Shown one piece after another: positions 2,503 through 20,381 of a DNA stretch of 64,000 nt (within the stretch, counting starts at the first letter, position 1; each line of letters starts with the position of its first letter). The notes beneath the pieces are model-generated. The model worked only from the letters and a program-made list of their open reading frames with translations. It was not told the origin of the DNA and searched no databases. Both the position numbers and the translations under genes were made by a program. This stretch comes from an uncultured Eubacteriales bacterium (lineage in GTDB: Bacteria > Bacillota > Clostridia > Christensenellales > CAG-138): positions 9,922 to 73,921 of the forward strand of contig UQYI01000006.1 in the NCBI GenBank assembly GCA_900545265.1, written 5' to 3'.

Positions 2503-2552
2503 TTTGCAGACGCAGCCCGCCGCTGCCGCAGCCAAGGCCGTATACGATGCAC

Positions 2553-2764: not shown

Positions 2765-2845
2765 GGGGCGCTGCTGCGGCGGCAGAGCCGCCGCGCCGCC
2801 CGCAGGGCGGGCTTTGGCGCCGCAGGCGCCAAAGGGCAGCGCCCC
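2765..2845 (-). repeat. Family B cloverleaf repeat, copy B1 (inverted relative to B2/B3)
   Basis: GGGGCGCTGC | CGGCGGC-aga-GCCGCCG | CCGCCC-gca-GGGCGG | CTTTGGCGCC-gca-GGCGCCAAAG | GCAGCGCCCC. GTATAC at 2752-2757. Confidence 0.85.
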
Positions 2846-2964
2846 CTCCCTCGAAGAGAACGCAGCCCCGCTCCCCCACATAAAAAGATCCCCCGCCGGG
2901 CGCTTTGCCTCGGGAAGGATCTTTTCTGTCTTTTACGTCTGTTCTTTTCTCCGCAATCCGCCGG

Positions 2965-3939
2965 TCAATTTTCTCCGCTGCCCTTGCGCCCGTGCTGATA
3001 CAGCTGCCGGTTGTCCAGGGCCCACAGCCGGTCAGAGAAGCCTCCCTTGCTCACGGTGGAAAGGGCGTCAAACATTTCAAACAGGCGGCTGTCCAGCAAG
3101 TCGCATTCCGAAAGCACCTCCGCTTCCGGGAACATGGGGAACTTGGGGCTGCCAAATTCCGGCTGACCATGGTGGGAAAGGAGCATATGCTCCAGCAGCA
3201 TGGCCGTTTCCTCCGGTATGTCCAGCCTGTCGGCGGCGTTGTGGATCAGGCTGATGCCAATGTTGATGTGCCCCAGCAGCTGCCCTTCGGGGGTATAGGC
3301 CGTGGCCAGCCCCAGCTTGCCCGTCTGCAATTCATACAGCTTGCCGATATCGTGAAGGGTGGCTCCTGCCGTTACCAGATCCCTGTCCAGCGCCGGATAC
3401 AGCTGGCAGATGGCCCGCCCCATGCGCACTACGGCGCAGGTATGCTGCAGCCAGCCTCCCCGGGTGGCATGATGGAGCTTTACGCCTGCCGGGAAACGCA
3501 ATATCTCCTGCCGGAAGGCATCCAGAAAATACTGCACCAGCTTTTTCAGATCCTTATCCGTAAATTCGTCGCTGAGGTTCCACAAATAATCAAAATATTT
3601 CTGAGGGTCTCCCGGGGCGCAGGGAACCAGACGGCTCATATCCACATTGTCCTCCGGGGTGGCCAGGCGGATGCGCTCCACCTTCAGCTGCTCCACGTCC
3701 TTCCAGATATTTATGGTAGCCCGGATCTTTACCACATCCTCCGGGTCAAAGGTACCATATGCGGCAATATTGTAATTCCACAGCTTGGCGGCGCATTCTC
3801 CTCCCGCATCCGCCACTGTCATATCCATATAGGAAGCGCCCTTGCTGTCCGTGCGCACGGCGCAGCTTTTGACCATGCAGAAACCCTCTACCTGGGTCCC
3901 GCGGCTCTCTTCCATCAAATTCATGCGGCTCATTTGCAT
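2965..3939 (-). CDS. yhaM: YhaM-like 3'-5' exoribonuclease (OB-fold plus HD domain)
   Basis: N-terminal OB-fold-like region followed by an HD domain (HATRGG...LHDIGK...SHHG). Start ATG at 3939 is preceded by GAAAGGAG. Confidence 0.75.
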   Translation of the reverse strand: MQMSRMNLMEESRGTQVEGFCMVKSCAVRTDSKGASYMDMTVADAGGECAAKLWNYNIAAYGTFDPEDVVKIRATINIWKDVEQLKVERIRLATPEDNVDMSRLVPCAPGDPQKYFDYLWNLSDEFTDKDLKKLVQYFLDAFRQEILRFPAGVKLHHATRGGWLQHTCAVVRMGRAICQLYPALDRDLVTAGATLHDIGKLYELQTGKLGLATAYTPEGQLLGHINIGISLIHNAADRLDIPEETAMLLEHMLLSHHGQPEFGSPKFPMFPEAEVLSECDLLDSRLFEMFDALSTVSKGGFSDRLWALDNRQLYQHGRKGSGEN

Positions 3940-4078
3940 GCTCCTTTCAGCGGTTGTTTTGCAGAATAAGTATATCAAAATTTTCACCGGATGAAAACAG
4001 GAACATTGTATAAAAAACGGGGCTGTGCTATACTTTTTAATGCGAATACAGGCGCTCGCTGCGCGCAGGAGAGGATAT

Positions 4079-6001
4079 ATGGCAAACGTTTATGCGGCGC
4101 CCCCCATGGAGGGCGGCGTCTTTTCGGCCATGGTGGTAGGGGCCGGCCACGGTGGCATAGAGGCGGCACTGGCTTTGGCCCGCATGGGGCTGGATACGGC
4201 CCTGCTCACCATGAATCTGGACAGCATCGGCATGATGCCCTGCAACCCGGCCATAGGCGGTACGGGAAAGGGGCACCTGGTTCGGGAGATTGACGCCATG
4301 GGCGGGGAAATGGGCCTTGCGGCAGACCAGACCCTGATCCAGATGCGCATGCTCAACACAGGCAAGGGACCTGCCGTCCATTCCTTGCGGGCTCAGATGG
4401 ACAAGCGCCGCTATCATGAGCGTATGAAGCAGGCTCTGGAGGCACAGGCACACCTGACGCTTATTCAGGGCGAGGCGGCGGATCTGGAGGTAAAAAACGG
4501 CTGCATAGAGGCTGTGGTCACCGCCGAGGGCTTCCGCTACCGGTGCCGGGCGGTGGTGCTCTGTACCGGCGTATACATGAAATCCCGCATCCTCATCGGA
4601 GATTTTTACCGGGAAAGCGGTCCAAACGGAATGCTCCGCAGCGAGACTCTTTCCGATGCCATGGGCCGTTTGGGTATTCCGCTGCAGCGGTTCAAAACCG
4701 GCACGCCTGCCCGGGTACACGGGGATTCCCTCCACTATGAGCGGATGGAGATCCAGCTGGGGGACGTGCCTACCCCTGCTTTCTCTTTTTTGAACGGAGA
4801 ACTCCACGTACAGCAGGAGCCCTGCTATCTGACCTATACCAATCCGGAGACCCACCGGATCATATTGGAGAATCTGTCCCGTTCTCCCATGTATTCCGGC
4901 AGGATCCATGCTACGGGCACCCGCTACTGCCCCTCCATAGAGGATAAGGTGGTGAAGTTTGCGGATAAGGACCGCCACCAGATCTTTATCGAGGCGGAGG
5001 GACGCAGCACCCGGGAGATGTATGTGCAGGGCATGTCCACCAGTCTCCCTGCGGATGTGCAGGAGCGTATGCTCCGTACCCTGCCCGGGTTGGAGGATGC
5101 AAAGATCCTCCGCTACGGCTATGCCATCGAATATGACTGTATCGACCCTCTGTGCCTGAACGGGGCTCTTATGGTCAAAAATATAGAGGGACTGTTCTGC
5201 GCCGGGCAGGTCAACGGCACCTCCGGCTATGAAGAAGCCGCCGCCCAGGGGCTGTATGCAGGGATCAATGCCGGGTTGTACCTTAAAGAGGAACCGCCCC
5301 TGCTGCTGGGCCGCAGCGACGCCTATATCGGCGTGCTGGCAGACGATCTGGTGACCAAGGGCACCAACGAGCCTTACCGGATGATGACCAGCCGCTGTGA
5401 ATACAGGCTGCTGCTCCGGCAGGATAATGCCGACGCCCGTCTGACGGAAAAGGTGCGCCGGACAGGGCTGATCAGTGAAAAGCGCTGGCGTGCTCTTATG
5501 GAAAAGCAGGAAAAGGTCAGCCGGGCCATGAGCCGGCTGAACGCGGTGGTCCCGCCGGAGGAAAAGCTTCAGGATTATCTTGCTTCCATTGGGGAAAGCC
5601 CCGTAAAGACCGGTGTAAAGCTTATGGAGCTGCTCAAGCGGCCAAAGGTCACCTATACGGAGCTGCTGCGTCTGTACGGTGGGGAAGAGGGTTTGGAGCC
5701 TGTGGACAGAGAGACGGAGGAACAGCTGGATGTGCTCACCCGCTATCAGGGCTATATAGAGAAGCAGGAGCAGCAGGTCAGGCGCATGGAGGCACTGGAA
5801 AATACGCCCTTACCGGATAATGCCGATTATGCCGCCGTAGAGGGCCTTCGGCTGGAGGCCCGGCAGAAGCTGGCTGCCCGCCGCCCCGGCACCATAGGGC
5901 AGGCCAGCCGTATCTCCGGAGTATCTCCGGCGGATGTAAGCGTGCTGCTGATATTGAGCAAGCGGGGCTTTCCGATAAAGAAAGAGGATCAAAATGGATA
6001 A
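4079..6001 (+). CDS. mnmG: tRNA uridine 5-carboxymethylaminomethyl modification enzyme MnmG (GidA)
   Basis: FAD-binding VVGAGHGGIEAALALARMG and full-length GidA-like sequence. ATG at 4079 follows AGGAGAGG. Confidence 0.95.
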   Translation: MANVYAAPPMEGGVFSAMVVGAGHGGIEAALALARMGLDTALLTMNLDSIGMMPCNPAIGGTGKGHLVREIDAMGGEMGLAADQTLIQMRMLNTGKGPAVHSLRAQMDKRRYHERMKQALEAQAHLTLIQGEAADLEVKNGCIEAVVTAEGFRYRCRAVVLCTGVYMKSRILIGDFYRESGPNGMLRSETLSDAMGRLGIPLQRFKTGTPARVHGDSLHYERMEIQLGDVPTPAFSFLNGELHVQQEPCYLTYTNPETHRIILENLSRSPMYSGRIHATGTRYCPSIEDKVVKFADKDRHQIFIEAEGRSTREMYVQGMSTSLPADVQERMLRTLPGLEDAKILRYGYAIEYDCIDPLCLNGALMVKNIEGLFCAGQVNGTSGYEEAAAQGLYAGINAGLYLKEEPPLLLGRSDAYIGVLADDLVTKGTNEPYRMMTSRCEYRLLLRQDNADARLTEKVRRTGLISEKRWRALMEKQEKVSRAMSRLNAVVPPEEKLQDYLASIGESPVKTGVKLMELLKRPKVTYTELLRLYGGEEGLEPVDRETEEQLDVLTRYQGYIEKQEQQVRRMEALENTPLPDNADYAAVEGLRLEARQKLAARRPGTIGQASRISGVSPADVSVLLILSKRGFPIKKEDQNG

Positions 6002-6674
6002 ACAGCTGCTGCAGACCTGTATGCCCGGGCTGGACGATACTGCTTATGAGCGCTTCTGTTTGTATTATGCCCGATTGACGGAAACCAACCGGGTCATGAA
6101 TCTGACGGCCATTACCGAAGAGCAGGAAGTAGCCTCCAAGCATTTTGCCGATTCTCTGGCCGCCTTGCCCTATCTGAATAGAAATGCCGCCGTTATAGAT
6201 GTGGGTACCGGGGCGGGGTTCCCGGGAGTGCCGCTGCTTATTGCCTGCCCCACGCTGCAGCTGACGCTGGCCGACAGCCTGCAGAAGCGTCTGACTTTTC
6301 TGGAAGGGCTGCTCAAGGAACTGGGGCTTTCCGCCGCCATTGTCCACGGCCGGGCGGAGGAATTGGGGCAGAACAGGCTCTATCGGGAAAAGTTTGATTT
6401 TGCCCTTTCCCGGGCGGTGGCCAATCTGCCGGTGCTGCTGGAGCTTACCACTCCCTTTATAAAGGTGGGAGGCACGGCCATCGCCTATAAGGGGCGGGCG
6501 GAGGAGGAACTGGCTCAAGCAAGATCCGCCGCTTTTCTGCTGCATGTAAAGCTGGAAAGTGTCCCGCTGGTATCCTCCATAGGGGAGCGTGCGCTGGTGC
6601 TGGCAAAAAAGACGGCTCCTACGCCCAAAATCTATCCGCGGCGCCCGGGTACTCCGGCTAAAAAGCCGCTGTAA
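5994..6674 (+). CDS. rsmG: 16S rRNA m7G527 methyltransferase RsmG (GidB)
   Basis: SAM motif IDVGTGAGFPGVPL. Overlaps the mnmG stop by 8 nt, as in the classical gidA-gidB pair. Confidence 0.9.
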   Translation: MDKQLLQTCMPGLDDTAYERFCLYYARLTETNRVMNLTAITEEQEVASKHFADSLAALPYLNRNAAVIDVGTGAGFPGVPLLIACPTLQLTLADSLQKRLTFLEGLLKELGLSAAIVHGRAEELGQNRLYREKFDFALSRAVANLPVLLELTTPFIKVGGTAIAYKGRAEEELAQARSAAFLLHVKLESVPLVSSIGERALVLAKKTAPTPKIYPRRPGTPAKKPL

Positions 6675-6708
6675 GGCGGGCTGCGTATCTGGTTTTAATT
6701 TTGTTTAC

Positions 6709-6736
6709 AGGCCGCTCTTACCGGGGCGGCTTTTTG
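6709..6736 (+). terminator. Probable rho-independent terminator after rsmG
   Basis: GCCGC...GCGGC stem followed by TTTTT. Confidence 0.45.
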
Positions 6737-6806
6737 TATATGGACAGCTTCGTGTATCGTTTATACGCTGCCCGCCGCTCCCCGTTTTTCCCGGTATACG
6801 GAAGGC

Positions 6807-6887
6807 GGGGCGCTGCCCTTTGGCGCCGTAGGCGCCAAAGCCCGCTCTGCGAGCGGTGCGGCGGCGAAGCCGCCGCAGCAGCGCCCC
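6807..6887 (+). repeat. Family B cloverleaf repeat, copy B2
   Basis: GGGGCGCTGC | CTTTGGCGCC-gta-GGCGCCAAAG | CCGCTC-tgc-GAGCGG | CGGCGGC-gaa-GCCGCCG | GCAGCGCCCC. GTATAC at 6794-6799. Confidence 0.9.
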
Positions 6888-7056
6888 ACGGCTCCATGAA
6901 ACCTTCGCATAGCAGCGGGCCCCGTATATGACACGGCTCCGGATCGCCGCGGCCCGGAAAACGGCTTTTCATGACTGATCCTGCTTTTATGAGGATATGC
7001 GTAGAGCAGACTGCTATCTGTCTCATCTCTTTTTCCGGTAAATGGGGCACTCTGTA

Positions 7057-7072
7057 TGTTTCACGTGAAACA
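7057..7072. promoter_or_regulatory. parS: parS centromere-like site 1
   Basis: TGTTTCACGTGAAACA is a perfect 16-bp palindrome matching the Firmicutes parS consensus TGTTNCACGTGAAACA. Confidence 0.9.
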
Positions 7073-7175
7073 TTTTTCTCCATGGGGCTGACTGGAAAAG
7101 CTGTCCCTGCCCAAACGGAAGCAGATGCGGGACGATACCCGCGGCAAGACGGAATATTGCACATGCACGAAGGCC

Positions 7176-7262
7176 GGGGGCGCACTGCGTGCCTTGCGGC
7201 ACGCCTGCGGGGCATTTGCCCCGCAGAGTTCCGGCGGCTTTGCTGCCGGAACGTGCGCCCCC
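7176..7262 (-). repeat. Family A cloverleaf repeat, copy A2 (inverted)
   Basis: Reverse complement of the A consensus. Hairpin 1 has one G.T pair (CTGCCGGAAC). GTATAC at 7270-7275, 7 nt outside. Confidence 0.9.
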
Positions 7263-7330
7263 GCGTATCGTATACGGTGCGACAAAAAAGCAGGCTCCCC
7301 TTTCAGAAAGCCCGCTTCCTCCATATTCGA

Positions 7331-8530
7331 TTATTTCAGCCGCTGCCCCAGATAAAACTCCAGCTGTGCCCGTATCTCCTCCAGCCCGGCAGGTTTTCTG
7401 GCACTGCCCTGGGCCATGTCTCCCCGGCCGCCGCCCTTGCCGCCCAGAGCAGCATTTACCGCCTGAATGACTTCGCCCATATCCAGGTTTATCCCTTTGC
7501 ACATGAGAATGTAGCTTACCTGCTCTCCGTTGGGGCACAGCAGCAGGGTCAGTGCCTTTGCTTCCAACGTGCTCTGGCACAGGGGCCGCAGCCGCTTTGG
7601 GTCCGTATCCTCTACAATCTCCACCAACAGCTTTTTCCCCTTTATATCCCGGGCCTTTTCCTTCAGCTCCCGGCTGTAATATCCCTCCAGCCGGGCGGAA
7701 AGGGATTTGTTCTGTCTTTTTGCGGCGTCCAGCTCTCCGTTCATTTTCTCCACGGCAGCAGATACCTTATCCACCCCTGTAGAAAAGCTCCGTGCCATGC
7801 CGTCCATAGCCTCCTGCAGCATGGCAGCGTAAGTATAAGCCCGGCCCCCGCACAAAAATGTCAGCCGCATACCGCCCTTATAGGCTGCTGCCTGGGTGAT
7901 CTTCAGCAGGCCGATCTCTCCGGTGTGCTTTACATGGGGGGCACAGCAGGTGCAGCTGTCCGCTCCCTCTATGGTCACCACCCGGATGGGAGCCGTTAAC
8001 CCCTCGGTATGCTTGCGCAGGGGCAGACCTTCCAACTCTTCCTCTGTTTCATAGATCACAGCGGTAACGGCCCGGTTTTCCCGGGCCACCCGGTTTGCCA
8101 GCTGCTCTATCTGTTTCAGCTGCTCCGCTGTCAGGGGGATATCCAGATCCAGGGTAGCATAGTCCAATGCACAGTGAAACCCAACGTTTACCGCCCCGTA
8201 CAGACTCCATGCACACCAGGAGAGCAGATGTTCCCCGGTGTGCTGCTCCATAATATCCTTTCTACGGGCCCAGTCTATAACGGCTTCCACCTCTGTTCCC
8301 GGTTCCAGCGGTTCGCTGCACAGATGTACCAGCCTGTCTCCTGCTTCGTTTACATCCAACACCTTTGCAGTGCCGATGGTGCCCAGGTCGCAGGGCTGAC
8401 CGCCCTTATTTGGGAAAAATACACTTCTGTCCAATTCTATTTCATAGCCTTTATCCGTTTTTACACAGGTTGTTACCCGGGCGGTGTTGCGGCACAGGTG
8501 GCTGTCCTGCAGATACAATCGTTCCGTCAT
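7331..8530 (-). CDS. alaX: AlaX-type alanyl-tRNA editing protein (tRNA_SAD plus DHHA1-like C-terminus)
   Basis: Zinc motifs HTGEHLL and CCAPHV, and C-terminal GGKGGGRGDMAQG. Start ATG at 8530 (residue 108 of the track ORF) follows TAAGGAG. The upstream part of the track ORF runs through a repeat. Confidence 0.8.
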   Translation of the reverse strand: MTERLYLQDSHLCRNTARVTTCVKTDKGYEIELDRSVFFPNKGGQPCDLGTIGTAKVLDVNEAGDRLVHLCSEPLEPGTEVEAVIDWARRKDIMEQHTGEHLLSWCAWSLYGAVNVGFHCALDYATLDLDIPLTAEQLKQIEQLANRVARENRAVTAVIYETEEELEGLPLRKHTEGLTAPIRVVTIEGADSCTCCAPHVKHTGEIGLLKITQAAAYKGGMRLTFLCGGRAYTYAAMLQEAMDGMARSFSTGVDKVSAAVEKMNGELDAAKRQNKSLSARLEGYYSRELKEKARDIKGKKLLVEIVEDTDPKRLRPLCQSTLEAKALTLLLCPNGEQVSYILMCKGINLDMGEVIQAVNAALGGKGGGRGDMAQGSARKPAGLEEIRAQLEFYLGQRLK

Positions 8531-8650
8531 GTCAATTCTCCTTAAAATGTTTGATCCGGCAGTGCCGTATTCTTTTTTATGCAGCTTTCCCGGTTCGGGC
8601 CGCTGCCCGCGTGTGCTCGGGGGCTGGTACCCGGGGGAGCGGGGCTTTCC

Positions 8651-8686
8651 GGGAAGCGGCGGCCGAGCCGCCGGAACGTGCGCCCC
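8651..8686 (-). repeat. Family A repeat, truncated copy A3 (hairpin 1 plus outer-stem arm only)
   Basis: GAAGCGGCGG-ccga-GCCGCCGGAAC GTGCGCCCC, with GTATAC at 8695-8700. The rest of the cloverleaf is missing or degenerate. Confidence 0.7.
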
Positions 8687-8828
8687 GTAGATTCGTATAC
8701 GAACCCGGCCTCGTGCTGCAGCGTCCCCTGCCTCTTTGCGGGGGAAACCCTTTCTTCCGGAGCCGGATGCGCTGTTTCCTGAGTATATGCCTACACTCAG
8801 TATACCACAGATGGCTCCTTCTGTCATT

Positions 8829-8844
8829 TGTTTCACGTGAAACA
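8829..8844. promoter_or_regulatory. parS: parS centromere-like site 2
   Basis: TGTTTCACGTGAAACA, identical to site 1. It ends 1 nt before the predicted -35 of the parA promoter. Confidence 0.9.
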
Positions 8845-8845
8845 A

Positions 8846-8874
8846 TTGCATTCCGGGGACAGATGCGCTATACT
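8846..8874 (+). promoter_or_regulatory. Predicted sigma-A promoter of parA-parB
   Basis: TTGCAT (8846-8851), 17 nt spacer, TATACT (8869-8874). It lies 34 nt upstream of the parA ATG. Confidence 0.55.
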
Positions 8875-8907
8875 GACTTTAACGCATACATTTCAGCGAG
8901 GTATACC

Positions 8908-9681: not shown

Positions 9682-9699
9682 ACGGGAAAGGAGCATACC

Positions 9700-10646: not shown

Positions 10647-10740
10647 CGGAGGATCCCGGCCGGGACAGCGCTTTCACATATCTGCGCTCAACCAGGCAGG
10701 GGGCGCCGCAATACGAAGTCAGGTGTGTATACGCAGCCCC

Positions 10741-10827: not shown

Positions 10828-10863
10828 GCCCTCGCTTCCCACCCGCTCCTTCCTTTTCACATA

Positions 10864-10879
10864 TGTTCCACGTGAAACA
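10864..10879. promoter_or_regulatory. parS: parS centromere-like site 3
   Basis: TGTTCCACGTGAAACA, an exact match to the B. subtilis-type parS consensus. Confidence 0.9.
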
Positions 10880-11003
10880 GTCCCTTTCCCAACGCCGGAG
10901 AGAAAATGTATATCAATTTCTCCGGAGCCGTTGCGGCCTTTGTCCTTTTATGCTACAATACATCCCATATATATATGGAAGAATAAGGAGATTTTTAAGA
11001 TAT

Positions 11004-13559
11004 ATGCGCAGAAAATGGATGGCCTGGGCTATGTGCCTGCTGATGCTGGCAGGTCTGTGCCTGTACGGCCCTGCAGCCCATGCAGAAGAAGCTACCGACG
11101 CCTGCACCTACACCGTGCCCAAGGATACGGAAGCAGCCTGGCTGACGGATGAGCGGGTGCTCAGCCGGGTGAACGTCCCCAAGGGGAAAAACATCGTCCT
11201 CTCCCTGCCGGAGATGGCCGCCCCAACTCTCTATGCCGTGTGGTATGCCCGTCCCGTCTCTCTGACGCTTATAGAAAAGGATGCCGCCGGGCAGGAGATC
11301 GCTTCCCGGGAACTGACCCCCGCATCCCTGTACGAAAGCTATTCCCTGACTCCCGGCTGTGTTCAGGCAGAGCTGAAGGCCGGAGCGGAGGGCTACAGCC
11401 TTTCCACCCTGCGGGTCTTTGACGGCCCCATAGACGAAAGCCTGCCCTGCTATGATCCCGCCGCCCCGGCAGAGGGAGATGTACTGCTGATCTGCGGGGA
11501 GCCTCACAGTATGCTGGAGGATTTCGGCGCCCTGCTGCCCTATTGCACAGAGGGGCTGGATCTTTCCGTTTCCGTGGTCTTTGCCCATATGGGCACCCGG
11601 AAGGAGCTTCACGAAGCCGTCAATGCCCTGTGGGAGATGGGGCTGCATACCGCCCCGCTGGTGGGCGCCTTTGCCGACGATGATATAAACGAGTATAAAA
11701 ACGTGGTCAAAAAGTGGACGGAGAAACGCACCAAAGAGTTTCTCACCGCCTGCATCCGCCGGGTAAAGCCCCGGATCGTCCTTGCCGGGGATCTGCAAGG
11801 CAAAGAACCCCGGAGCCGCTTTACGGCGGAGATGACTGTAGAAAGCTGGAAGCTGGCTTCTCAGCAGGGGCAGTATCCGGATTCGGCCGCCGCTTACGGC
11901 GTTCATACCCCGGATAAGCTGTATACCCTCTCCGCCGCCGGGGGTACCACGGTGGATATGTCCGGCCTGACAGCGGGCGAAGAGACCCTTCTGACGGAAA
12001 CCGCCCGGACCGCCTACCGCTGCTTCGCTTCCCGGCAGATGTACCATATTCCTCTGCCGGAAAAACTGACTCTGTCCTTACAGGAGACCGGTGTGGGTCA
12101 GGATGCCAATAAGGACAGCCTGCTGGAGCATGTGGATACCGCCGGGCTCCGGCAATACGAAAACCGGCTGACGCCCCCTGTCACGCCTACTCCCGTCCCC
12201 ACGGATACGCCTGTTCCCACGGATACCCCCGTTCCTACGGATACGCCTGCACCGGAGGAAACCGCCGCTCCTCAGACCGACCCGGTCCCTGCGGAGACCC
12301 CCGTACCGCCGGAAGCCGCAGGGCAGCTGGCCCTGGAAAAGTTTGCGGGCAGCCCGCATACGGGAACCATTTTGATCGTGGGTCTGCTGGCCGCCGCTCT
12401 GCTGGGAGCCGCTCTGTATTTTGTAAAACGTTTTTACCGTAAAAAACTCCCTGTGACCGCTCTGTGGGCACTGCCCCTGCTCATCGGTCTGCTGACGGCG
12501 GTGCTGGCCGCTTATGATGTGTTTGCGCAGGGGGCCATGGTGCAGCGGCAGGCCATAGAAGCGGCGCAAAAAGCCACTCCCGTGCCTACCCCGGTACCCA
12601 CGGATACCCCTGCTCCCACAAATACACCTGCGCCTACGGATACACCGGCCCCCACACAGACTCCTGCTCCGTCTCCTGCAGAAACGCCTCTTCCCGAGAA
12701 AAATGCGGAGCTGACAGACTTTGACCGGCACTTTTTGAACGACGGTACCACGGAGCTGGTGGAGAAGAATGACGAGGAGGCGGGGGAATGGATCTATCGC
12801 AGCGATATTCTGGCCGTGGAGATCACCCGCAAGACCATTACGCTGGACGAGGAACCCCTGACCTATTATGCAGCCCATATCTATCAGCGGGAGTTTGATT
12901 CCTTCCGGCCCGCTTTTGCCACGGATAAAAAGACCGGCACGGAAACGGCTGCGGCACAGGATATGGTCAAACGCTACCGGGCCGTACTGTGGATCACCGG
13001 GGATAACATCATCCATGCGGAAAAGGAAAAGAAGGGCGTTCTTATCCGCAACGGACGCATCTACAGCAAGAACCGGGCGGTGGATACGCTGGCTCTGTAC
13101 AGCGATACCCTTTCCATGGAGATAGTGCCCAAAAGCCGCACGGCGGAGTATATCCTCTCCAGCGGCGCAGAAAACACCTATTCTTTCTTCCACGGTCCCA
13201 AGCTGCTGGTGGACGGGGAGATCCATAAGGACGCTTACCGCACCACCCAGAAGAACCCGCGCTGCGGCGTAGGGCAGGTGGCTCCGGGGCATTTTGTGGC
13301 CATAGTGGCCGACGGCCGGCAGAAAGGCTACAGCAGCGGCGCCCGGCTGAGTCAGTTTGCCCAGCTGTTTAAGGACGAAGGCTGCACCCTGGCCTTTAAT
13401 CTGGACGGCGGCGTTTCCACAGCCATGTTCTTTATGGGCAAAATGATCAACCGGGTGGAGGATAACGGCAAGACCGGCTATGAAGCCTCCTGGCTGCGGG
13501 CAGTGCCTGACGGGCTGGTGTGGGGCTATACCAACCTGCCCGGCTATTTTGAAAACTGA
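11004..13559 (+). CDS. Large envelope protein: signal peptide, LmbE/PIG-L-like domain with degenerate motif, Pro/Thr linkers, two TM helices, C-terminal phosphodiester glycosidase (NAGPA/DUF2233-like) domain
   Basis: Start MRRKWMAWAMCLLMLAGLCLYGPAAHA at 11004. C-terminus GVGQVAPGHFVAIVADGRQKGYSSG...AFNLDGGVSTAMFF is typical of phosphodiester glycosidases. The N-terminal 93 residues of the track ORF are repeat A4/parS read-through. Confidence 0.75.
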   Translation: MRRKWMAWAMCLLMLAGLCLYGPAAHAEEATDACTYTVPKDTEAAWLTDERVLSRVNVPKGKNIVLSLPEMAAPTLYAVWYARPVSLTLIEKDAAGQEIASRELTPASLYESYSLTPGCVQAELKAGAEGYSLSTLRVFDGPIDESLPCYDPAAPAEGDVLLICGEPHSMLEDFGALLPYCTEGLDLSVSVVFAHMGTRKELHEAVNALWEMGLHTAPLVGAFADDDINEYKNVVKKWTEKRTKEFLTACIRRVKPRIVLAGDLQGKEPRSRFTAEMTVESWKLASQQGQYPDSAAAYGVHTPDKLYTLSAAGGTTVDMSGLTAGEETLLTETARTAYRCFASRQMYHIPLPEKLTLSLQETGVGQDANKDSLLEHVDTAGLRQYENRLTPPVTPTPVPTDTPVPTDTPVPTDTPAPEETAAPQTDPVPAETPVPPEAAGQLALEKFAGSPHTGTILIVGLLAAALLGAALYFVKRFYRKKLPVTALWALPLLIGLLTAVLAAYDVFAQGAMVQRQAIEAAQKATPVPTPVPTDTPAPTNTPAPTDTPAPTQTPAPSPAETPLPEKNAELTDFDRHFLNDGTTELVEKNDEEAGEWIYRSDILAVEITRKTITLDEEPLTYYAAHIYQREFDSFRPAFATDKKTGTETAAAQDMVKRYRAVLWITGDNIIHAEKEKKGVLIRNGRIYSKNRAVDTLALYSDTLSMEIVPKSRTAEYILSSGAENTYSFFHGPKLLVDGEIHKDAYRTTQKNPRCGVGQVAPGHFVAIVADGRQKGYSSGARLSQFAQLFKDEGCTLAFNLDGGVSTAMFFMGKMINRVEDNGKTGYEASWLRAVPDGLVWGYTNLPGYFEN
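12198..12251 (+). repeat. 3 x 18-bp tandem repeat encoding (PTDTPV)n linker
   Basis: CCCACGGATACGCCTGTT / CCCACGGATACCCCCGTT / CCTACGGATACGCCTGCA. Confidence 0.8.
12597..12668 (+). repeat. 4 x 18-bp tandem repeat encoding (PT[DNQ]TPA)n linker
   Basis: CCCACGGATACCCCTGCT / CCCACAAATACACCTGCG / CCTACGGATACACCGGCC / CCCACACAGACTCCTGCT. Confidence 0.8.
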
Positions 13560-13578
13560 TTTAAGGAAAGAAAAAAAC

Positions 13579-14085: not shown

Positions 14086-14132
14086 ACCGCCTTTCCGCAT
14101 CACCTCATTCATGGAAAGGAAAGGTATGGAAC

Positions 14133-14606
14133 ATGCATGTAGAACTCTATTCGGAAAAGTATCATGAAGAGGCCGTCGCTCTTATTCTTGATATACAGAA
14201 TAACGAGGCAAAGATCGGTCTTTCGTTGGAAGAACAGCCGGATCTGCTTCATATAGATGCATCCTACCGTGAAAAGGGCGGGGCATTCTGGCTGGCTCTG
14301 GAGAAAGGGGAGATGATCGGCACCCTGGGTCTTATGCGCAAAGAGCAGCAATGCGCCGTTATGAAAAAGTTCTTTGTAAAAAAGGAGTTCCGTTCCCAAA
14401 AGGTAGGGGCCGCCCTGTATAAGGAACTGCTGGCTTTTGCAAAGGAGACGGGTATCCGGCATATTCTGCTGGATACGCCTTCCGTAGCCCATGCATCCCA
14501 CCGGTTTTATGAAAAAGCCGGGTTCCGCCGCATTTCCGCTGCACAGCTGCCCATTCCCTATACCTATCCGGACAGAGACAGCCTGCTGTATCTGCTGGAG
14601 CTGTAA
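14133..14606 (+). CDS. GNAT family N-acetyltransferase
   Basis: FFVKKEFRSQKVGAALY (Q/RxxGxG/A-like) motif and 157 aa GNAT-size protein. Confidence 0.8.
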   Translation: MHVELYSEKYHEEAVALILDIQNNEAKIGLSLEEQPDLLHIDASYREKGGAFWLALEKGEMIGTLGLMRKEQQCAVMKKFFVKKEFRSQKVGAALYKELLAFAKETGIRHILLDTPSVAHASHRFYEKAGFRRISAAQLPIPYTYPDRDSLLYLLEL

Positions 14607-14656
14607 CCACACCTGCCGCAAAACACCCCATACAATATTCTAAACAGGAGGAGACC

Positions 14657-15040
14657 ATGGACTACTTAAAACTGGTAAGAAAAACGATCATAGTGCTGCT
14701 TCTGGGGATGTGCATAACCGCCCTTGTCATGCTGGGTCTGCCCAGGCTGGCGGTGACCCTTGTCCCGGCAGACAGCGGGATGCTGGTGAGCCTGCTGCTG
14801 TTCCTTGCGGTAAATCCGCTGTATGCCGTTTTGGTGGGTCTTGTATCGGCCGCCAATCCAAAGGTTTTGTGGCTCCTGCCCCTTGCGGTGGCGGAGATGT
14901 TCGTCCTTGGGGCCATGCTGGCTTTTGAGCGTGCGGATCCGTCCTTTTTCCTGTATGCGGGGATCTATCTGCTGCTGGGCATAGGCTTCATGCTGCTTAG
15001 AGTGTTCTGGAAGAAAGAGCGGCAGCAGGCGGCGGCCTGA
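14657..15040 (+). CDS. Small integral membrane protein (4 predicted TM helices)
   Basis: Hydrophobic segments throughout. RBS AGGAGGAG lies upstream of the ATG at 14657. Confidence 0.6.
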   Translation: MDYLKLVRKTIIVLLLGMCITALVMLGLPRLAVTLVPADSGMLVSLLLFLAVNPLYAVLVGLVSAANPKVLWLLPLAVAEMFVLGAMLAFERADPSFFLYAGIYLLLGIGFMLLRVFWKKERQQAAA

Positions 15041-15063
15041 GAAATCCGTTCCAAAAGAATTTG

Positions 15064-15097
15064 CAGCTCCCCTGTCCGGGGAGCTTTTTGCGTTTTT
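15064..15097 (+). terminator. Rho-independent terminator
   Basis: AGCTCCCC tgtcc GGGGAGCT followed by TTTTGCGTTTTT. Confidence 0.7.
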
Positions 15098-15131
15098 ATG
15101 CTGCCCCGGAAAAGCGCTGTATACGCACCCC

Positions 15132-15214
15132 GGGGCGCACGTTCCGGCGGCTTGCCGCCGGAACTCTGCGGGGCATTGCCCCGCAGGCGTGCCTTTCGGC
15201 ACGCAGTGCGCCCC
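15132..15214 (+). repeat. Family A cloverleaf repeat, copy A5
   Basis: Full consensus with loops cttg / att / tttc. GTATAC at 15119-15124. Confidence 0.9.
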
Positions 15215-15298
15215 GCCCCTGCTTCCCGCACAGGCCCCATGGGCGGCGGGAACCTTTCCCACGGCAGCCGGAAAAGAGGGCAAAAGCTGCTCCCACGC

Positions 15299-15328
15299 AA
15301 AAAACGGACGGTCTCCCGTCCGTTTTTT
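15299..15328 (-). terminator. Strong bidirectional terminator immediately after the capsid-gene stump
   Basis: AAAAAACGGACGG tctc CCGTCCGTTTTTT. Confidence 0.8.
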
Positions 15329-15336
15329 CTTCTCCC

Positions 15337-15513
15337 TTATCGAAGGGAAAAGCTCCTGTCCCGGCGCAAAGGGCCTCCGCTGTGCCGGGGCAGGGAGCGT
15401 TTCTGGCCGAAGTTGGCGTGTACCAGCCGGGTCTTGGCTGTGTCCAAAAGCTTCCTGTCATAAAAAGTCTTGTTGAAATATGCGTTTTCCTGAGTAGAAA
15501 GGGTTGTATTCAT
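15337..15513 (-). pseudogene. 5' stump (58 codons) of a phage major capsid protein gene
   Basis: Not in the ORF track (<60 aa). Hand translation gives MNTTLSTQENAYFNKTFYDRKLLDTAKTRLVHANFGQKRSLPRHSGGPLRRDRSFSLR*. The Y(Y/F)D.KLLD.A...LVH..FGQK..LP...G pattern matches N-termini of N4-gp56/HK97-like capsid proteins. RBS AAGGAGG. Confidence 0.55.
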
Positions 15514-15531
15514 AGAGTACCTCCTTGATGA

Positions 15532-15936
15532 TCACTTTCTGGTGGAAGGGCTACGGCGTTTCATCATGGCTTCCAAAGCCCGGAAGGCTTCAGGACTCAT
15601 GCTCATATAATCCTCCTGGGGCGCCAAAGCCCGGTTGGCACGGGTGGGGCGGGGGAGCTCCTGCCGGGTCTGGGCGGCCAGGGTCAGTTCCTCCATGACG
15701 TCTGCCCGGGCGTTTTGGGCGGCCTGCTCCGCCTGATATACCCGCAGGGCAGCATAGGCAGGCAGTTCCGTAAGCAGGGCGGCAAAGGCCGGGTCCTGGC
15801 AGACCTCCTCCAGCTCCAGCCCCTGGGGAAACTTATCCTGCCGCACCAGCTCCATCAGTTCTTCTATCGCCTGGGCAAAGGACGTTTCCTGTTGGGAGGG
15901 TTCCTGTTGAACAGGACTGCGTTTGAATAGATTCAT
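15532..15936 (-). CDS. Probable phage scaffolding or minor head protein
   Basis: Position between portal and capsid genes. Helical, charged and Q/E/A-rich 134 aa protein. No specific motif recognised. Confidence 0.45.
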   Translation of the reverse strand: MNLFKRSPVQQEPSQQETSFAQAIEELMELVRQDKFPQGLELEEVCQDPAFAALLTELPAYAALRVYQAEQAAQNARADVMEELTLAAQTRQELPRPTRANRALAPQEDYMSMSPEAFRALEAMMKRRSPSTRK

Positions 15937-15939
15937 GAT

Positions 15940-17547
15940 TTACCTCCGGATAAAATTGTGTATCTTGCGGTTCTTTTTTACGGGCGCCGCTTCACCGGCA
16001 TCCCGGTCCATGACCTTGAGCACCTGTTCCTTGCCTTCAAAAAGCATGAGCTCCACGGCCTGCCTGGGGCGCAGGGCCCCCATCTGCATCAGCTGCAATA
16101 CCAGCTCGTTCTGTGCGGCTGCGGCAAATTTGTTCTGCCGGCTGGCCTTGACAGAGATGAAAAACTCCATGGGCAGGGCCCGTTCTTTGGTGGGCAGCAG
16201 CTGGGCGCTGTCAAACAGACATTCCCGGCTCTCCCCGTTTTCCGTGATGGTCACGGGCCGCAGGTAGAAGTTAAACTCCCGTTCCACCTCTATCTCCATG
16301 CGCACTGCCTGCCGGAAGGCTTCGTGAAGCTGCTCCGTGGCCATGCGGGCCCGCTTGGTGCTGGCCTCCTGCAAAGCCTGAATGGCGCTGGCGGCGGTGA
16401 CTCCCTGGCGGAAGTTCCCCCGACTGGAATCGTTGGCGCCGCTCTCCTCCTTGATGTCCTCCCGGATCCTGCCGATGTAGCCAAGCAGATAACTGGGCAG
16501 GGGCGGGGTAGAGAACCAGGTGATGCCGTTCAGGCTCTCGCCCCGGTGAACCTCTTTGGACCAGTCCTTCAGATCCTCCTCGTCAAAGCCGGAGCTCTGG
16601 GTCACCAGCAGCTTGTTGCGGCTGGCCATAAAGGCATTTTTCAGCACGATCTGATCCAGCTTGTCTGCATAGCGCTGCTGCTTTTCAAACAGATCCACTA
16701 TGCCAAAGCCCAGACAGCTGCCCTTGCGCACATACAGCGGGGTCAATACAAAGGGGTACTGGCCGTGAGCAAAGTAGCCCTCCGGCTTTTGCCGGCGGCT
16801 GTCCTCCAGCACAGCGCCCCCGCACAGCAGGGCCATATGCACCTGGCTGCGGCCGTTTTTATCGGGCGGGGTTTTCCACCAGTATTCCAGCAGGAGCAGG
16901 GCGTCCCGGCGGTCGGCAGTCAGGGTCTCGTCCATGGGCGCATCGGCGCAGGCATAGGCGTCCTCTCCGATGAAGGGAGCCTTCTCCGGGTAGCGTTCCT
17001 CTATCCACTGCCGGGAGCGGATGGAGAATTTGAACACTGCCCGTCCCTCCTGCATATCGTCGCACAGGGGGTCAAAGAGGATGCTCCGATTATCTACACT
17101 GCGGATGTAGGCGCCGCCCAGGCCGTTGTTCAGGGCGGGGTCATAGCCCACCTCCTGAACGCAGTAGCCCCCCACCAGAAGATCGTGGACCAGCTTCCTG
17201 TATTCCAATGGATAGCCGGATACATCGTGGTTCCGGGCAATGACCGCTTCCACCACCCGGGCCACATGGCTGTCGGCCCCGCTTTCCGGGGTGATAAGAG
17301 CCTGAGGGCATTGATCCATCAGATCGGCGCTTACGTTTTCAATGGTGCTCTGGATCACCGGGGTCACGGGCCGGGGCTCGTGGGGGTCTGTCTGGGGCAC
17401 ATCGTACCAGTGATCCCCCCGGTACATCCTTTCGTTGTTTTCCAGCCGCTGCCATTCCCGCATATATGCGCTGCGGTAAGCGGCAAAGAGTGCATAGGCC
17501 TGTTGGGCAAGAAGTTTTTCGCCCGGGGCCGTATCCTTTCTGTTCAT
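15940..17547 (-). CDS. Phage portal protein
   Basis: 535 aa, located directly after the large terminase gene. N-terminal WQRLENNERMYRGDHW and overall layout resemble SPP1-Gp6-like portals. Confidence 0.75.
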   Translation of the reverse strand: MNRKDTAPGEKLLAQQAYALFAAYRSAYMREWQRLENNERMYRGDHWYDVPQTDPHEPRPVTPVIQSTIENVSADLMDQCPQALITPESGADSHVARVVEAVIARNHDVSGYPLEYRKLVHDLLVGGYCVQEVGYDPALNNGLGGAYIRSVDNRSILFDPLCDDMQEGRAVFKFSIRSRQWIEERYPEKAPFIGEDAYACADAPMDETLTADRRDALLLLEYWWKTPPDKNGRSQVHMALLCGGAVLEDSRRQKPEGYFAHGQYPFVLTPLYVRKGSCLGFGIVDLFEKQQRYADKLDQIVLKNAFMASRNKLLVTQSSGFDEEDLKDWSKEVHRGESLNGITWFSTPPLPSYLLGYIGRIREDIKEESGANDSSRGNFRQGVTAASAIQALQEASTKRARMATEQLHEAFRQAVRMEIEVEREFNFYLRPVTITENGESRECLFDSAQLLPTKERALPMEFFISVKASRQNKFAAAAQNELVLQLMQMGALRPRQAVELMLFEGKEQVLKVMDRDAGEAAPVKKNRKIHNFIRR

Positions 17548-17569
17548 GTATCTCCTTTCTGCACGGGGG

Positions 17570-18904
17570 CTACAGTCCCCGGAAGCCTCCGTTTCCGGGG
17601 CCGGTCACAGGGGCAAAGGGGTCATAGGCCGGGACATGGCGCAGGCAGGGTATCCGGGCGGGGATGGGCCGGGACATAAGGCCGTAGCGCAGCGCCTCCG
17701 GGGCATGATCCTCACAGGCATCGCTGACATCCTCACAGTTGTGGGTGTCATAGGTGAGCAGGGGCAGGGTACGGATCAGATTGGAGCAGGTTTCAAAAAT
17801 CACCAGCCCCGGCCGGCCGTCTTCCCCTGTCCGCAAGGCTTCCCGCACCCGCTGCCAGCCGGTGATGCGCCGGTTGTCCGCCGGGAGCAGGGGTACCCCG
17901 CCCCGGGCAAAAACCTCGGCGATGGATTCCCCCTGGGCGCCGCCCAGCCCCCGCTGCTGCCAGGCGTCCGGGGAGGCGGCGGTATAGGCGATCCTCTCCC
18001 CCTGAGAAAGGGCCGCCACCTGCCTGGCAATGTCGCTGGAAAGGGTTCTGCGCACATACAGTTCCCGGTATACCAGCACCTGCCCTTCGGGATCCACGGC
18101 GAACCAGAGCACGCAGCATGGGTCGTTGTAACCCCAGTCCATGGCTCGAAACCGCCGCCAGTGGGCAGGAATGGCGCAGGGCGGCTCCACATGGATATCC
18201 CGGCGGAATTCCGGGAAGTACTGCCCCTGAAGCACATCCCAGTCTCCTTCCAGATAGGCCCGGCGCAAATGCTCCGGCAGGCTCAGCAGGCTTTTCCGGT
18301 AGCCGGGATCCCGCTCCATGAGCACGGGGTTGTCTGTGAGCCGGGCCGGGATAAAGCGGTAATCCGCCGGGGTCTCCCCCTCCCGGTACTGCCGGTCCAG
18401 AAACAGGCGTTTTACCCAGCCGTGGCCCACGCCCCCGGGGTTGCAGGTGTAGTACATCCGGGGAGAGAAGTCCCGCCTTACGGAGCGGTTGCAGGTGGTC
18501 AGAAACTGCATCTGGCTTTCCGTAAAGTGGGTGGCCTCCTCCAGACCGATCACGTCGTACTCCTGCCCCTGATACTGGTATACATCCTTTTCCAGATCAC
18601 AGTATCCCAGCTTGATCCTGGAGCCGTTGGGAAAGAGAAAGCACCGCTGGCTCTGGTTATACCGGGCTACACCGTTGAGCTCCTGCAGCAGGGGGCGAAC
18701 ATGGTTCTCTGTCAGTTCCGGCAGGGTGCGGCGCAGAAGCAGCAGCTGCAAGCCCTCATAGCGAAAGGCCAGCAGCACGAATTTGCGGCGCATGGCCCAG
18801 CTTTTGCCCCCGCCTCTGGCTCCGCCGTAGGCCGTATGCCGGGCGGAGGAGAGGAAAAAGGCAGCCTGCTTGGGGTTGGGGGTTCCCTGTAAGAGCAGCT
18901 TCAT
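17570..18904 (-). CDS. terL: Phage terminase large subunit
   Basis: Walker A YGGARGGGKSW and a downstream nuclease half. Start MKLLLQGTPNPKQ at 18904 overlaps the terS stop (ATGA). Confidence 0.9.
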   Translation of the reverse strand: MKLLLQGTPNPKQAAFFLSSARHTAYGGARGGGKSWAMRRKFVLLAFRYEGLQLLLLRRTLPELTENHVRPLLQELNGVARYNQSQRCFLFPNGSRIKLGYCDLEKDVYQYQGQEYDVIGLEEATHFTESQMQFLTTCNRSVRRDFSPRMYYTCNPGGVGHGWVKRLFLDRQYREGETPADYRFIPARLTDNPVLMERDPGYRKSLLSLPEHLRRAYLEGDWDVLQGQYFPEFRRDIHVEPPCAIPAHWRRFRAMDWGYNDPCCVLWFAVDPEGQVLVYRELYVRRTLSSDIARQVAALSQGERIAYTAASPDAWQQRGLGGAQGESIAEVFARGGVPLLPADNRRITGWQRVREALRTGEDGRPGLVIFETCSNLIRTLPLLTYDTHNCEDVSDACEDHAPEALRYGLMSRPIPARIPCLRHVPAYDPFAPVTGPGNGGFRGL

Positions 18905-19299
18905 AGGCTGTACGCCTCCGCGCCGCCCTCCATGGAAACGGTAAGGGACGAAGGCCCTTCCTCCTGGGGATACAGCTCCTTCAGGGCGGCGGTGGCCACC
19001 TGATAGCTCAATTCCCCCAATAATGCCCGTTCCATGGTATAGGCGGCGATGCGGCATACGGCCTGCGAAAGCAGTGCCCGCTGCCAGGGTGCGCCCCCTT
19101 CGCCCCGGCTCAAAGCCAGCAGCTCCGGTGCGGGCAGATGCATATGGGCACACAGGCCGTAAAGAGTGTAGGGGATCTGTCTCTCTGAAAATCCGCCTCC
19201 CTTCAGGGCCGTACGCTCCCGGGTGCTGTCGCACAGGGCAAAATACGCTTCCACGGCCTGTTCCCATTCCCGGCGGTTGGCCGGGGGTCTCTTTTCCAT
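18901..19299 (-). CDS. terS: Phage terminase small subunit
   Basis: AVEAYFALCD...IPYTLYGLCAHMHL pattern (gp3-like small terminase HTH). Start ATG at 19299 follows GGAAAGGAGG. Confidence 0.65.
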   Translation of the reverse strand: MEKRPPANRREWEQAVEAYFALCDSTRERTALKGGGFSERQIPYTLYGLCAHMHLPAPELLALSRGEGGAPWQRALLSQAVCRIAAYTMERALLGELSYQVATAALKELYPQEEGPSSLTVSMEGGAEAYSL

Positions 19300-19480
19300 T
19301 GTTCTGTCCGCCTCCTTTCCCTTGGCTCGGGAACAATCTATCACGGCAGGCACTGTAAAAATTTTTATAAATCCTCCACCATGAGGAGAGAAAGAGATAC
19401 AGGAGAGGTGTAAACTTTTTCCTTTTTGTCCGGTTTGATAAAGAAAGTGTGGTAATATAAAAGAAAAGGAGAACTCTTTC

Positions 19481-20194
19481 ATGAAAAAAAGTCTCTTTTT
19501 CCTTTGCGGCATTTTATGCTTGCTGCCGGCAGCCTGCAGACCGGTTCCGGATGGGGCGGTGCTGTCCCCGGAAGCAGAGGAGGTTTCTGCCTATGCGCCG
19601 GAGGAAGATTCGATGAATGCCTATATGGAGGAGGCTTTTGCCCGGGAGAAGGAACGCTTTCAAACGGAAACAGAGTATGACCCGGAGGATCCGGATCTGC
19701 TGCTGAAACAGACCGTGAACGGGTATCTGCTTTCCATTCATCTGCTGCTGGCGGATCCTGCGGCGGAGCCCTTTGAGGAGGACGATCCTCTGGTGAGGTC
19801 CATGCTGGCATATTGCAGCAGCGATTTTTCGCTGGAGGCTTTGCTTACCGCAGGCTGGCGGTATGAGCTGGCCCGGAGCAACGGGGTGACCTATACCCTT
19901 TTGGGTCACAGGACGGAGTATAAATCCATTGACCATGGTGGGGAAGAAACCACGGTGCAGGTGCTGGATGCTGCGGAGATCCGCTATTTTGATAACGATT
20001 TTACCAGCGGTTCCGGGGATACGCATATCCTGAGGCTGAAGCAGGAAAAGGGGGAGTGGAAGATCACCTATGATTTTCCCGGCGACATGATGAAGCACAT
20101 ACATGAAACTTACAGACGGTATCTGGAAAAATGTCCCTATACGGAAAGGGAGAAGATCATCGGCTGGATGCAGGAAAACTGGTGGGGCAGGTAA
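19481..20194 (+). CDS. Lipoprotein of unknown function
   Basis: Signal peptide with lipobox LLPAAC. RBS AAGGAG. Confidence 0.7.
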   Translation: MKKSLFFLCGILCLLPAACRPVPDGAVLSPEAEEVSAYAPEEDSMNAYMEEAFAREKERFQTETEYDPEDPDLLLKQTVNGYLLSIHLLLADPAAEPFEEDDPLVRSMLAYCSSDFSLEALLTAGWRYELARSNGVTYTLLGHRTEYKSIDHGGEETTVQVLDAAEIRYFDNDFTSGSGDTHILRLKQEKGEWKITYDFPGDMMKHIHETYRRYLEKCPYTEREKIIGWMQENWWGR

Positions 20195-20295
20195 GATCCT
20201 GCAATGAGGGATATGCTGTTCTTCCGGCCAGGGATTTCGTGCTGTAAGAAGAAGCTGGGAGCGCTTTCCCGGCTTTATGGAGTTGTGCGGTATAC

Positions 20296-20381
20296 GGGGG
20301 GCGCTGCCAGACGGCAGCGTGGTGCCCAAGTATTACGCGCAGAACAGCGGCGCGGCGGCGGAGCCGCCGCAGCAGCGCCCC
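20296..20381 (+). repeat. Family B repeat, degenerate copy B3
   Basis: Outer arms GGGGGGCGCTGC...GCAGCGCCCC and hairpin CGGCGGC-gga-GCCGCCG are retained. The other two hairpins are replaced. GTATAC at 20290-20295. Confidence 0.65.

Follow-up and report, generated by a model that had tools for sequence, protein, structure and literature searches.

Cloverleaf-like intergenic DNA repeats in an uncultured gut Clostridia bacterium and its close relatives

Small structured intergenic repeats, such as repetitive extragenic palindromes (REP), BOX elements and miniature inverted-repeat transposable elements (MITEs), are an already known kind of bacterial DNA. We analyzed a repeat family (family B) and its companion (family A) in a 64,000-nucleotide stretch (the window; C6:9922-73921) of the genome of an uncultured Eubacteriales bacterium, and compared them with these systems. 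Like the REP, bacterial interspersed mosaic element (BIME) and REPIN repeats of the RAYT (REP-associated tyrosine transposase) systems of Enterobacteria and Pseudomonas (PMC3116915, PMC3337134), the elements are high-copy, GC-rich, palindromic and strictly intergenic, and often lie at gene 3' ends. Also as in those systems, they form lineage-specific families that are vertically inherited and fixed among strains, with a BIME-like mosaic of hairpin modules. However, a REP is a single imperfect hairpin of 20-40 nt with a conserved 5' tetranucleotide (e.g., GTAG) and a REPIN combines two REPs into a doublet, whereas the unit described here is a closed four-way junction with three perfect hairpins (80-90 nt) and no RAYT gene. 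Its sole conserved flank word, GTATAC, lies 8-13 nt off the core and on either side.

Bacterial MITEs and other small repeats (Correia, ERIC, BOX/RUP/SPRITE, bcr1) resemble the elements in being non-autonomous, 100-200 bp long and dispersed between genes, with terminal inverted repeats, strong predicted secondary structure and, as in BOX, a modular build. Unlike MITEs, the elements have an interior of three independent perfect palindromes, and sister species share their architecture and not their sequence; neither a parent insertion sequence whose ends match nor a clear target-site duplication was found. A structural analogy exists with the inverted terminal repeats of parvoviruses, in which a closing stem surrounds small palindromes and the interior occurs in 'flip' and 'flop' forms. 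The parvoviral repeats arise by hairpin transfer and serve a linear genome as three-way (T-shaped) telomeres, whereas the elements here are internal chromosomal repeats with three arms. Yeast mitochondrial GC clusters are likewise short, GC-rich, palindromic and mobile with no known enzyme, and merging and shuffling of their palindromes has been proposed (PMC4478555), but they are organellar, ~30-60 bp long, have an AG target motif and form single hairpins (PMC4478555). The elements behave like structured DNA repeats of the REP/MITE type, but they do not qualify as REP-RAYT repeats, terminators or known RNAs, nor, probably, as classical MITEs. In the literature searched, we found no family that lacks a RAYT and is defined by a closed four-way junction whose perfectly paired arms are interchangeable. 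The group is an undescribed one that occurs in a few uncultured gut Clostridia.

We propose that family B is one lineage of clade-restricted, non-coding, dispersed DNA repeats of a REP/MITE-like kind, in which pairing is kept by template switching (probability about 0.6). In the best reading the elements are old, structured DNA repeats that are now mostly fixed, and their shape is probably kept, while the sequence changes, through DNA copying and not through RNA function.

The genome (labelled G000) is represented by an assembly of 36 contigs (2.2 Mb, 54% GC, 95.5% complete). Two of the three B copies in the window, B1 and B2 (coordinates in Table 1), are an inverted pair of 81 nt each that are 89% complementary. 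An outer 10-bp stem enclosing three hairpins had been proposed from the sequence alone, and folding of both copies bears this out: the hairpins have 10, 6 and 8-9 bp with 3-nt loops, and the junction has 0-1 unpaired bases. Folded as single-stranded DNA, each strand reaches -44 to -46 kcal/mol (z-scores of -6.0 to -8.4), a stability matched by none of 200 shuffles. The core is a compound palindrome, so that either strand could fold into a perfect four-way junction with 0-1 unpaired bases. The paired difference reported for the middle arm is real (CCGCTC/GAGCGG in B2, CCGCCC/GGGCGG in B1). The claim that B1 is the inverted form of B2 holds for the core but not for the flank, as GTATAC is found to the left of all three B cores, 8-13 nt away on the + strand. 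B1 and B2 are therefore mutually inverted, yet GTATAC is left of both, because the B1 core is flipped relative to its flanks. Such inversion of the core against both flanks was seen in at least four copies, B1 included. The third copy, B3, had been described as degenerate. This is true of the present assembly, in which arms 1 and 2 are swapped for ~42 unrelated nucleotides (20309-20350; AGACGGCAGCGTGGTGCCCAAGTATTACGCGCAGAACAGCGG) that are coding-like in look and lack a source anywhere else in the genome; each of 10 other strains, however, carries an intact 81-nt B element at this site, with flanks identical to those of this assembly. Either the B3 interior was patched in very recently or the assembly is chimeric at this point.

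Genome-wide, the outer-stem pattern GGGGCGC-N55-85-GCGCCCC has 76 matches, and classification of the cores by their arms gives ~60 of family A and 16 of family B. Additional B copies are B3, one with an imperfect outer stem (C1:63596) and one whose parts lie at the starts of contigs C12 and C6 and are bridged by strain contig L029, for a total of about 18-20 cores in three sub-types. Sub-type B-i, the type of the copies noticed originally, has a short arm 2 (CCGC[T/C]C) and includes B1, B2, B3, C18:43822 and the C12/C6 junction copy. B-ii has arm 2 GCCCGGCCGC or similar (~10 copies), and B-iii has a short arm 1 (CTTTGGC) and a long arm 2 (CAGCGGGCC..; four copies). Variants with other outer stems lie at C10:34735, C10:36573, C10:50827, C10:23807, C12:54605 and C1:201067. 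A search for cloverleaves that ignores sequence (chaining of three adjacent perfect hairpins enclosed by an outer stem of 5 bp or more) returned 46 sites across the genome, every one from this superfamily, and 0 sites in three order-2 Markov genomes. It is well founded that A and B represent a single design in two sequence versions: both have the GGGGCGC start of the outer stem (its first 7 nt), a CGGCGGC hairpin tip, GTATAC and common flank motifs. The two families occur in one genome (~60 A and ~18-20 B cores), and further stem variants of the same architecture exist in the three B sub-types, the odd variants and a third family in sister species. The notion of a single structural design that occurs in several sequences is correct and extends across species.

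When elements are oriented by arm order, one flank of A and B carries the motif GGGACGC..(G)ATACGG..GGTTC-GTATAC-G-N7-GG, and the other carries CGCC..CGCTTCCCGGCA..CCGGGTACC, or the first flank in an inverted copy. A profile of the GTATAC flank detected 29 sites, 28 of which adjoin a core, the remaining one being an internally deleted copy. The idea that the flanks are an independent target repeat that receives cores was rejected, since no flank was seen without a core. As nearly all flank-profile sites adjoin cores, and as A and B have the outer-stem start and flank motifs in common, flank and core together make up a single dispersed unit of roughly 170-200 bp, with A or B as its core. The proposal of B as a second family thus stands insofar as B is a real lineage, but it is not a stand-alone element, being the core of a longer unit with A-type flanks. 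Mean pairwise identity is 85% among A cores and 74% among B cores; it is only 42-46% in the 50-nt flanks, indicating that the copies are old.

Stems are paired almost without exception. Of the 1992 stem positions in 56 elements, 1969 (~99%) are Watson-Crick pairs, 11 are G.T and 12 are single mismatches; G.T outnumbers A.C by 11 to 4. The 16 B cores contain 27 distinct arm haplotypes, 19 of which are perfect palindromes. Stem lengths vary symmetrically at the loop end and the loops are highly variable across copies. In an alignment of eight distinct B-i sequences from this genome and other strains, 96.8% of cells are paired, and four pairs have changed on both sides (15-31 UA/CG, 17-29 GC/CG, 39-47 CG/GC and 40-46 CG/UA) versus 0-1 in slid controls; the covariation score exceeds all 500 shuffles. 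As the sequences are few and related, the covariation is supportive and not decisive. The much larger differences between the arms of the B sub-types, of family A and of the sister-species family point the same way, toward maintained pairing.

Paired changes above controls and a very stable fold would be expected of a structured non-coding RNA family, in which each copy gives rise to a cloverleaf RNA and the covariation reflects selection on the RNA fold, a reading that was implicit in the sequence-only reading. It would also fit the orientation of 31 of the 42 copies in co-directional regions, which is that of the genes. We nevertheless consider it highly improbable, because the two strands fold equally well, the stems are essentially Watson-Crick with very few wobbles, the loops are unconstrained and flip to the opposite-strand sequence, and the core is found facing either way within its own flanks. 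Moreover, copies lie 3' of terminators and between convergent genes, a conserved promoter-like motif is absent, and the family is confined to one species. Rfam 15 gave no match at gathering thresholds over the 64 kb (around B1 only chance-level matches, with E up to 10), and ARAGORN found no tRNA.

We identified four cases in which orthologous loops of close strains (~98% identical DNA) are swapped for their exact reverse complement: TTT/AAA in arm 1 at the B3 site (L069 vs L074), GAA/TTC in arm 3 of B2 (the window vs L088), ATCC/GGAT in arm 2 of the A element at the window 8657 locus (L062 vs L033), and ATTT/AAAT in arm 2 of the A element at 7175-7262 (the window vs nine strains). Conversion from another copy cannot account for the B3-site flip, as the arm 1 stem there is unique to the locus. 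Within the genome, pairs of reverse-complement loops on the same stem are 3-4 times enriched relative to column shuffles. For family A arm 1, 100 pairs were observed and 23 expected, and for family B arm 1, 30 and 8.3, values that 0 of 2000 shuffles reached in either case; for the triloops of A arm 3 the values are 26 and 11 (0 of 2000), and for the tetraloops of A arm 2 they are 18 and 6 (1 of 2000).

Template switching during replication of inverted repeats results in spacer inversion, arm homogenization and compensatory changes in a single step (PMC8794818, PMC8604942). The products known from such template-switch (quasipalindrome) mutagenesis, namely arm homogenization, compensatory changes, symmetric stem extension and spacer inversion (PMC8794818, PMC8604942, PMC7202029), are all seen here. 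From these products and the loop flips we infer that the hairpins form in vivo in single-stranded DNA. Because template switching makes double substitutions in one step, the paired changes need no selection on an RNA fold. It is, however, a mutational process and not an element family, and accounts for the kept pairing, not for how the repeats arose or spread. The suggestion that the fold is under selection, or is recognized, is accordingly upheld only in part: a compensatory change alone does not show selection, but the recurring four-way design keeps recognition a live option.

We envisage that the units behaved as non-autonomous, REP/MITE-like DNA and spread in the ancestor of the species, while a different sequence family would have spread in its two closest sister species. 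The units would have settled in untranscribed spacers just 3' of gene terminators, where almost all would now be fixed. Hairpins may arise in single-stranded DNA during replication, and template switching within a hairpin would then copy one arm from the other and so keep the stems perfectly paired. The same process could turn single mutations into paired ones, alter stem length symmetrically and flip loops, and it probably sometimes flips the whole core.

Comparison of strains is consistent with mostly fixed elements. The flanking proteins were found in hundreds of metagenome assemblies, indicating that the species is common in human gut metagenomes. B2 and the neighboring A copy were found in every one of 10 strains (B2 with the loop changes GTA/GCA and GAA/TTC), and the A core after parB in 8 of 8; in all, elements are fixed in 8-10 strains at four loci. 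No presence/absence polymorphism of a whole unit was seen in ~60 strain loci. In strain contig L062, the A core after parB is alone absent, between 5-nt CCCCG direct repeats and with both flanks retained. This core-less allele is rare, the core being present in L033 and in eight further strains, which makes deletion the economical interpretation. When set against L033/L062 and L053, the window genome shows internal microhomology deletions at window 8657-8738 and C12:55746-55756, between direct repeats of 3-10 nt. Element decay proceeds by deletion between short direct repeats. L053 has a further variant, with outer stem GGGATGCAC.

In two strain contigs the sequence switches location exactly inside a B core: L011 links C5:80612 with C5:70141, and in L039 C5 is connected with C6. 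The B copies at these junctions are C5:70149-70230, C5:80622-80701 and C6:75364-75446 in G000, and L011 implies that the 10-kb stretch bounded by two inverted B copies has been inverted. These joins represent either repeat-mediated rearrangement or chimeric assembly.

The family shows a narrow distribution. The A/B outer-stem pattern has 0-2 matches in each of 16 congeners (GTDB species representatives) and a maximum of 12 across 401 genomes of the order, where controls give 3-6; the 53 matches to a reversed control pattern in G188 belong to a CRISPR array and are unrelated to the repeats. The orthologous intergenic regions around yhaM, mnmG and rsmG in G001 and G008 are free of A and B elements. 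G001 and G004, which are the two closest congeners, instead have a hairpin GGTTCGC-N3-4-GCGAACC (63 and 55 copies, respectively) that is absent from this genome and from 14 other congeners. In 12 of 14 sampled sites this hairpin is part of a clear cloverleaf, here called family C, with outer stem GGGGCGGCG, unrelated arms, a long and variable arm 2 and no GTATAC. Elements are altogether absent from 14 of the 17 species of the genus. A contig from a related metagenome-assembled genome (L005, ~69% identical) has a cloverleaf at the site orthologous to the C1:201067-201163 variant, with the same outer-stem start (GGGGCGGGGC) and different arms. In another genus of the same family, a single three-hairpin cloverleaf with outer stem GGGGCGCGGCTCGCG and unrelated arms lies at G238:C54:49095-49177. 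The G001 regions orthologous to the B1 and B2 sites contain another repeat, not a cloverleaf (..GAAATC[T/C]GACTT..ACATCAAGGGGAGCC..), and contig L083 (G001:C177) breaks at both copies of it.

Genes were predicted with our own codon-usage caller after masking the cores; it is imperfect and, for example, mis-calls the gene at 1771-2463. Two naive open reading frame (ORF) callers were dropped, as they got strands wrong or assigned the GC-rich elements to spurious ORFs. Once the cores are masked, all elements are intergenic, with 22 in convergent, 11 in divergent and 42 in co-directional intergenic regions (284, 286 and 1162 such regions genome-wide). Both A-B pairs of the window lie in convergent regions past canonical terminators and, by eye, between two opposing terminators. 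An inward-facing terminator is found within 200 nt of ~33 of 76 elements, and its T-run typically ends 58-90 nt ahead of the core.

REP and BOX elements inside transcripts have been reported to stop read-through or to protect 3' ends. By analogy, the multi-hairpin blocks could act as transcription insulators or back-up terminators that halt read-through or shield 3' ends from exonucleases, and the exclusively intergenic location, the inward-facing terminators and the enrichment of convergent regions (29% of elements vs 16% of intergenic regions) could be cited for this. Such a role is very unlikely, however, as the closing stem is not followed by the T-tract of an intrinsic terminator and the genes already have canonical terminators ahead of the elements. 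In addition, 11 of 75 elements are in divergent (promoter) regions, and most congeners manage without the elements.

Contigs differ strongly in their content of elements (chi-square p = 7e-10). The window corresponds to the region of the replication origin, with dnaA (C6:8183-8665) ~1.3 kb before its start, followed by a yhaM-like gene, mnmG, rsmG, parA and parB (parA/parB at ~9.0-10.6 kb of the window). C12 abuts C6 via a B copy, and these two origin-flanking contigs hold 19 elements in 178 kb, compared with one per 29 kb overall, a density about three times that of the genome, while nine contigs of 47-127 kb are without elements. This clustering around dnaA, parAB, mnmG and rsmG might reflect DNA structural sites used by the host, where a host protein, e.g., a nucleoid-associated one, gyrase or an enzyme that binds junctions (such as RuvA or RecU), would bind or process the junctions, with a role in chromosome organization or replication, much as REP/BIME have been recruited for gyrase and IHF binding. 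Fixation among strains, an architecture kept with unrelated arms in three sister species, and a family A arm 3 loop that does not flip would fit such a role. It is unlikely, since clustering equally fits local spreading, no binding protein was found, copies decay by deletion and one strain has lost a core without visible consequence. An essential function cannot depend on the elements, given that 14 of 17 species of the genus lack them.

No candidate for a mobilizing enzyme emerged. A six-frame search of the genome for PF01797 (Y1, RAYT/IS200) gave 0 matches, while the same search was positive in four relatives and six control genomes, so that a RAYT/IS200-type Y1 transposase was rejected as the mobilizer. 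The HD-domain gene inside the two A-B pairs, considered as a RAYT-like candidate, encodes a conserved YhaM-type exoribonuclease that is also present in element-free relatives (an exact-protein look-up of this YhaM-like gene gave no match). In formal terms the outer stem amounts to an inverted repeat. Genes bordered by elements have housekeeping functions, and those between close-set elements (an aminopeptidase, AspRS, HisRS, MreB and unknowns) include no transposase. Element orientation shows no bias relative to GC skew or to the local gene-strand majority, and a replication-strand bias, which would indicate a single-strand transposase, was rejected.

Several observations weigh against the template-switching repeat that we favor. 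No mobilizer candidate, and no transposase beside or between the elements examined, was found (the full transposase inventory was not searched), and neither an unambiguous insertion polymorphism nor a target-site duplication was seen; mobility is thus deduced from copy number and species restriction only. In co-directional regions 31 elements are oriented with the genes and 11 opposite to them, by gene calls that are home-made and imperfect. For the arm 3 tetraloop of family A (GCCA/GTCA, 22 copies), the listed copies include no flipped counterpart, which hints at a strand-specific constraint. Template switching also leaves unexplained why the same four-way design occurs with unrelated arms in three species. 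This recurrence suggests that something recognizes or selects the fold, and a mobilizing or binding activity that does so is a live possibility. The four-way junction would then itself be the recognized object, and the elements an architecture-defined class of mobile or recombinogenic single-stranded DNA elements in gut Clostridia, which we regard as rather unlikely. In that case a structure-specific enzyme other than RAYT would copy or insert the Holliday-junction-like fold, each species would be free to evolve its own arms (A and B here, family C in the sisters), and the flip-flop of loops and cores might be a by-product of hairpin-primed or junction-resolving steps.

The features around the B copies are listed in Table 1. 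Only two pairs of elements lie less than 600 bp apart genome-wide, and both are A-B pairs (2549-2845 and 6807-7262) that mirror each other across the 4-kb segment with the yhaM-like gene, mnmG and rsmG. A segmental inverted duplication was rejected as their source because the similarity is confined to the elements. Elsewhere in the window, a 33-nt tandem duplication (GGTGGGAAGCGA..) at 10690-10725, in the family A flank after parB, is polymorphic (L033, L062, L115), and an 18-nt periodic coding repeat (Pro/Thr/Asp-rich) at 12170-12690 lies within a long ORF (10863-13559); a similar coding repeat at C1:98588-98680 varies in copy number among strains. A 3.7-kb segment (window 58893-62588, C6:68814-72509) that is absent from L059 encodes small exported proteins and a helix-turn-helix protein, with no clear transposase. 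The strain-specific segments of 1.5 kb and 3.7 kb contain no obvious insertion-sequence genes.

Table 1. Family B units, neighboring family A cores and terminators in the window (window coordinates).
Feature	Position	Strand	Remarks
B1 core	2765..2845	-	read on the + strand, outer stem 2765-2774/2836-2845; core inverted relative to flanks
B1 arms	arm 3 2775-2794; arm 2 2796-2810; arm 1 2812-2834		read on the + strand; arm 1 CTTTGGCGCC-GCA-GGCGCCAAAG
B1 unit, left flank	2715..2764	+	GGGGCGC..CCGGG..GTATAC (2752-2757); flank type as in family A
B1 unit, right flank	2846..2890	+	CCTCCCTCGAAGAGAACGCAGCCCCGCTCCCCC; common to B-iii copies and C10:38979
B2 core	6807..6887	+	outer stem 6807-6816/6878-6887; arm 1 6818-6840
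B2 arms 2 and 3	arm 2 6842-6856; arm 3 6857-6877	+	arm 2 CCGCTC-TGC-GAGCGG
B2 unit, left flank	6760..6806	+	GTATAC 6794-6799
B3 core	20296..20381	+	outer stem and arm 3 retained; arms 1 and 2 replaced
GTATAC left of B3	20290-20295	+	
Family A core	2549..2635	+	131 nt from B1, same convergent intergenic region
Family A core	7175..7262	-	291 nt from B2; mirror image of the A-B pair 2549-2845
Canonical intrinsic terminator, upstream gene	2478..2498	+	A and B1 elements lie 3' of the terminator
Canonical intrinsic terminator, rsmG	6709..6732	+	B2 begins 75 nt downstream

The elements carry a caution for structure-based RNA discovery, as the strong "covariation" seen here most likely results from DNA template switching and not from RNA selection. 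With dozens of hairpins per genome and many sequenced strains of a common human-gut species, they constitute a natural system in which the in vivo rates of loop inversion, arm homogenization and palindrome deletion are measurable. If a structure-specific mobilizer does exist, the elements would be a new type of transposition substrate. The repeats also break short-read assemblies, with contig ends inside B copies and some joins that are either chimeric or the result of inversion, and they may drive real rearrangements near the replication origin.

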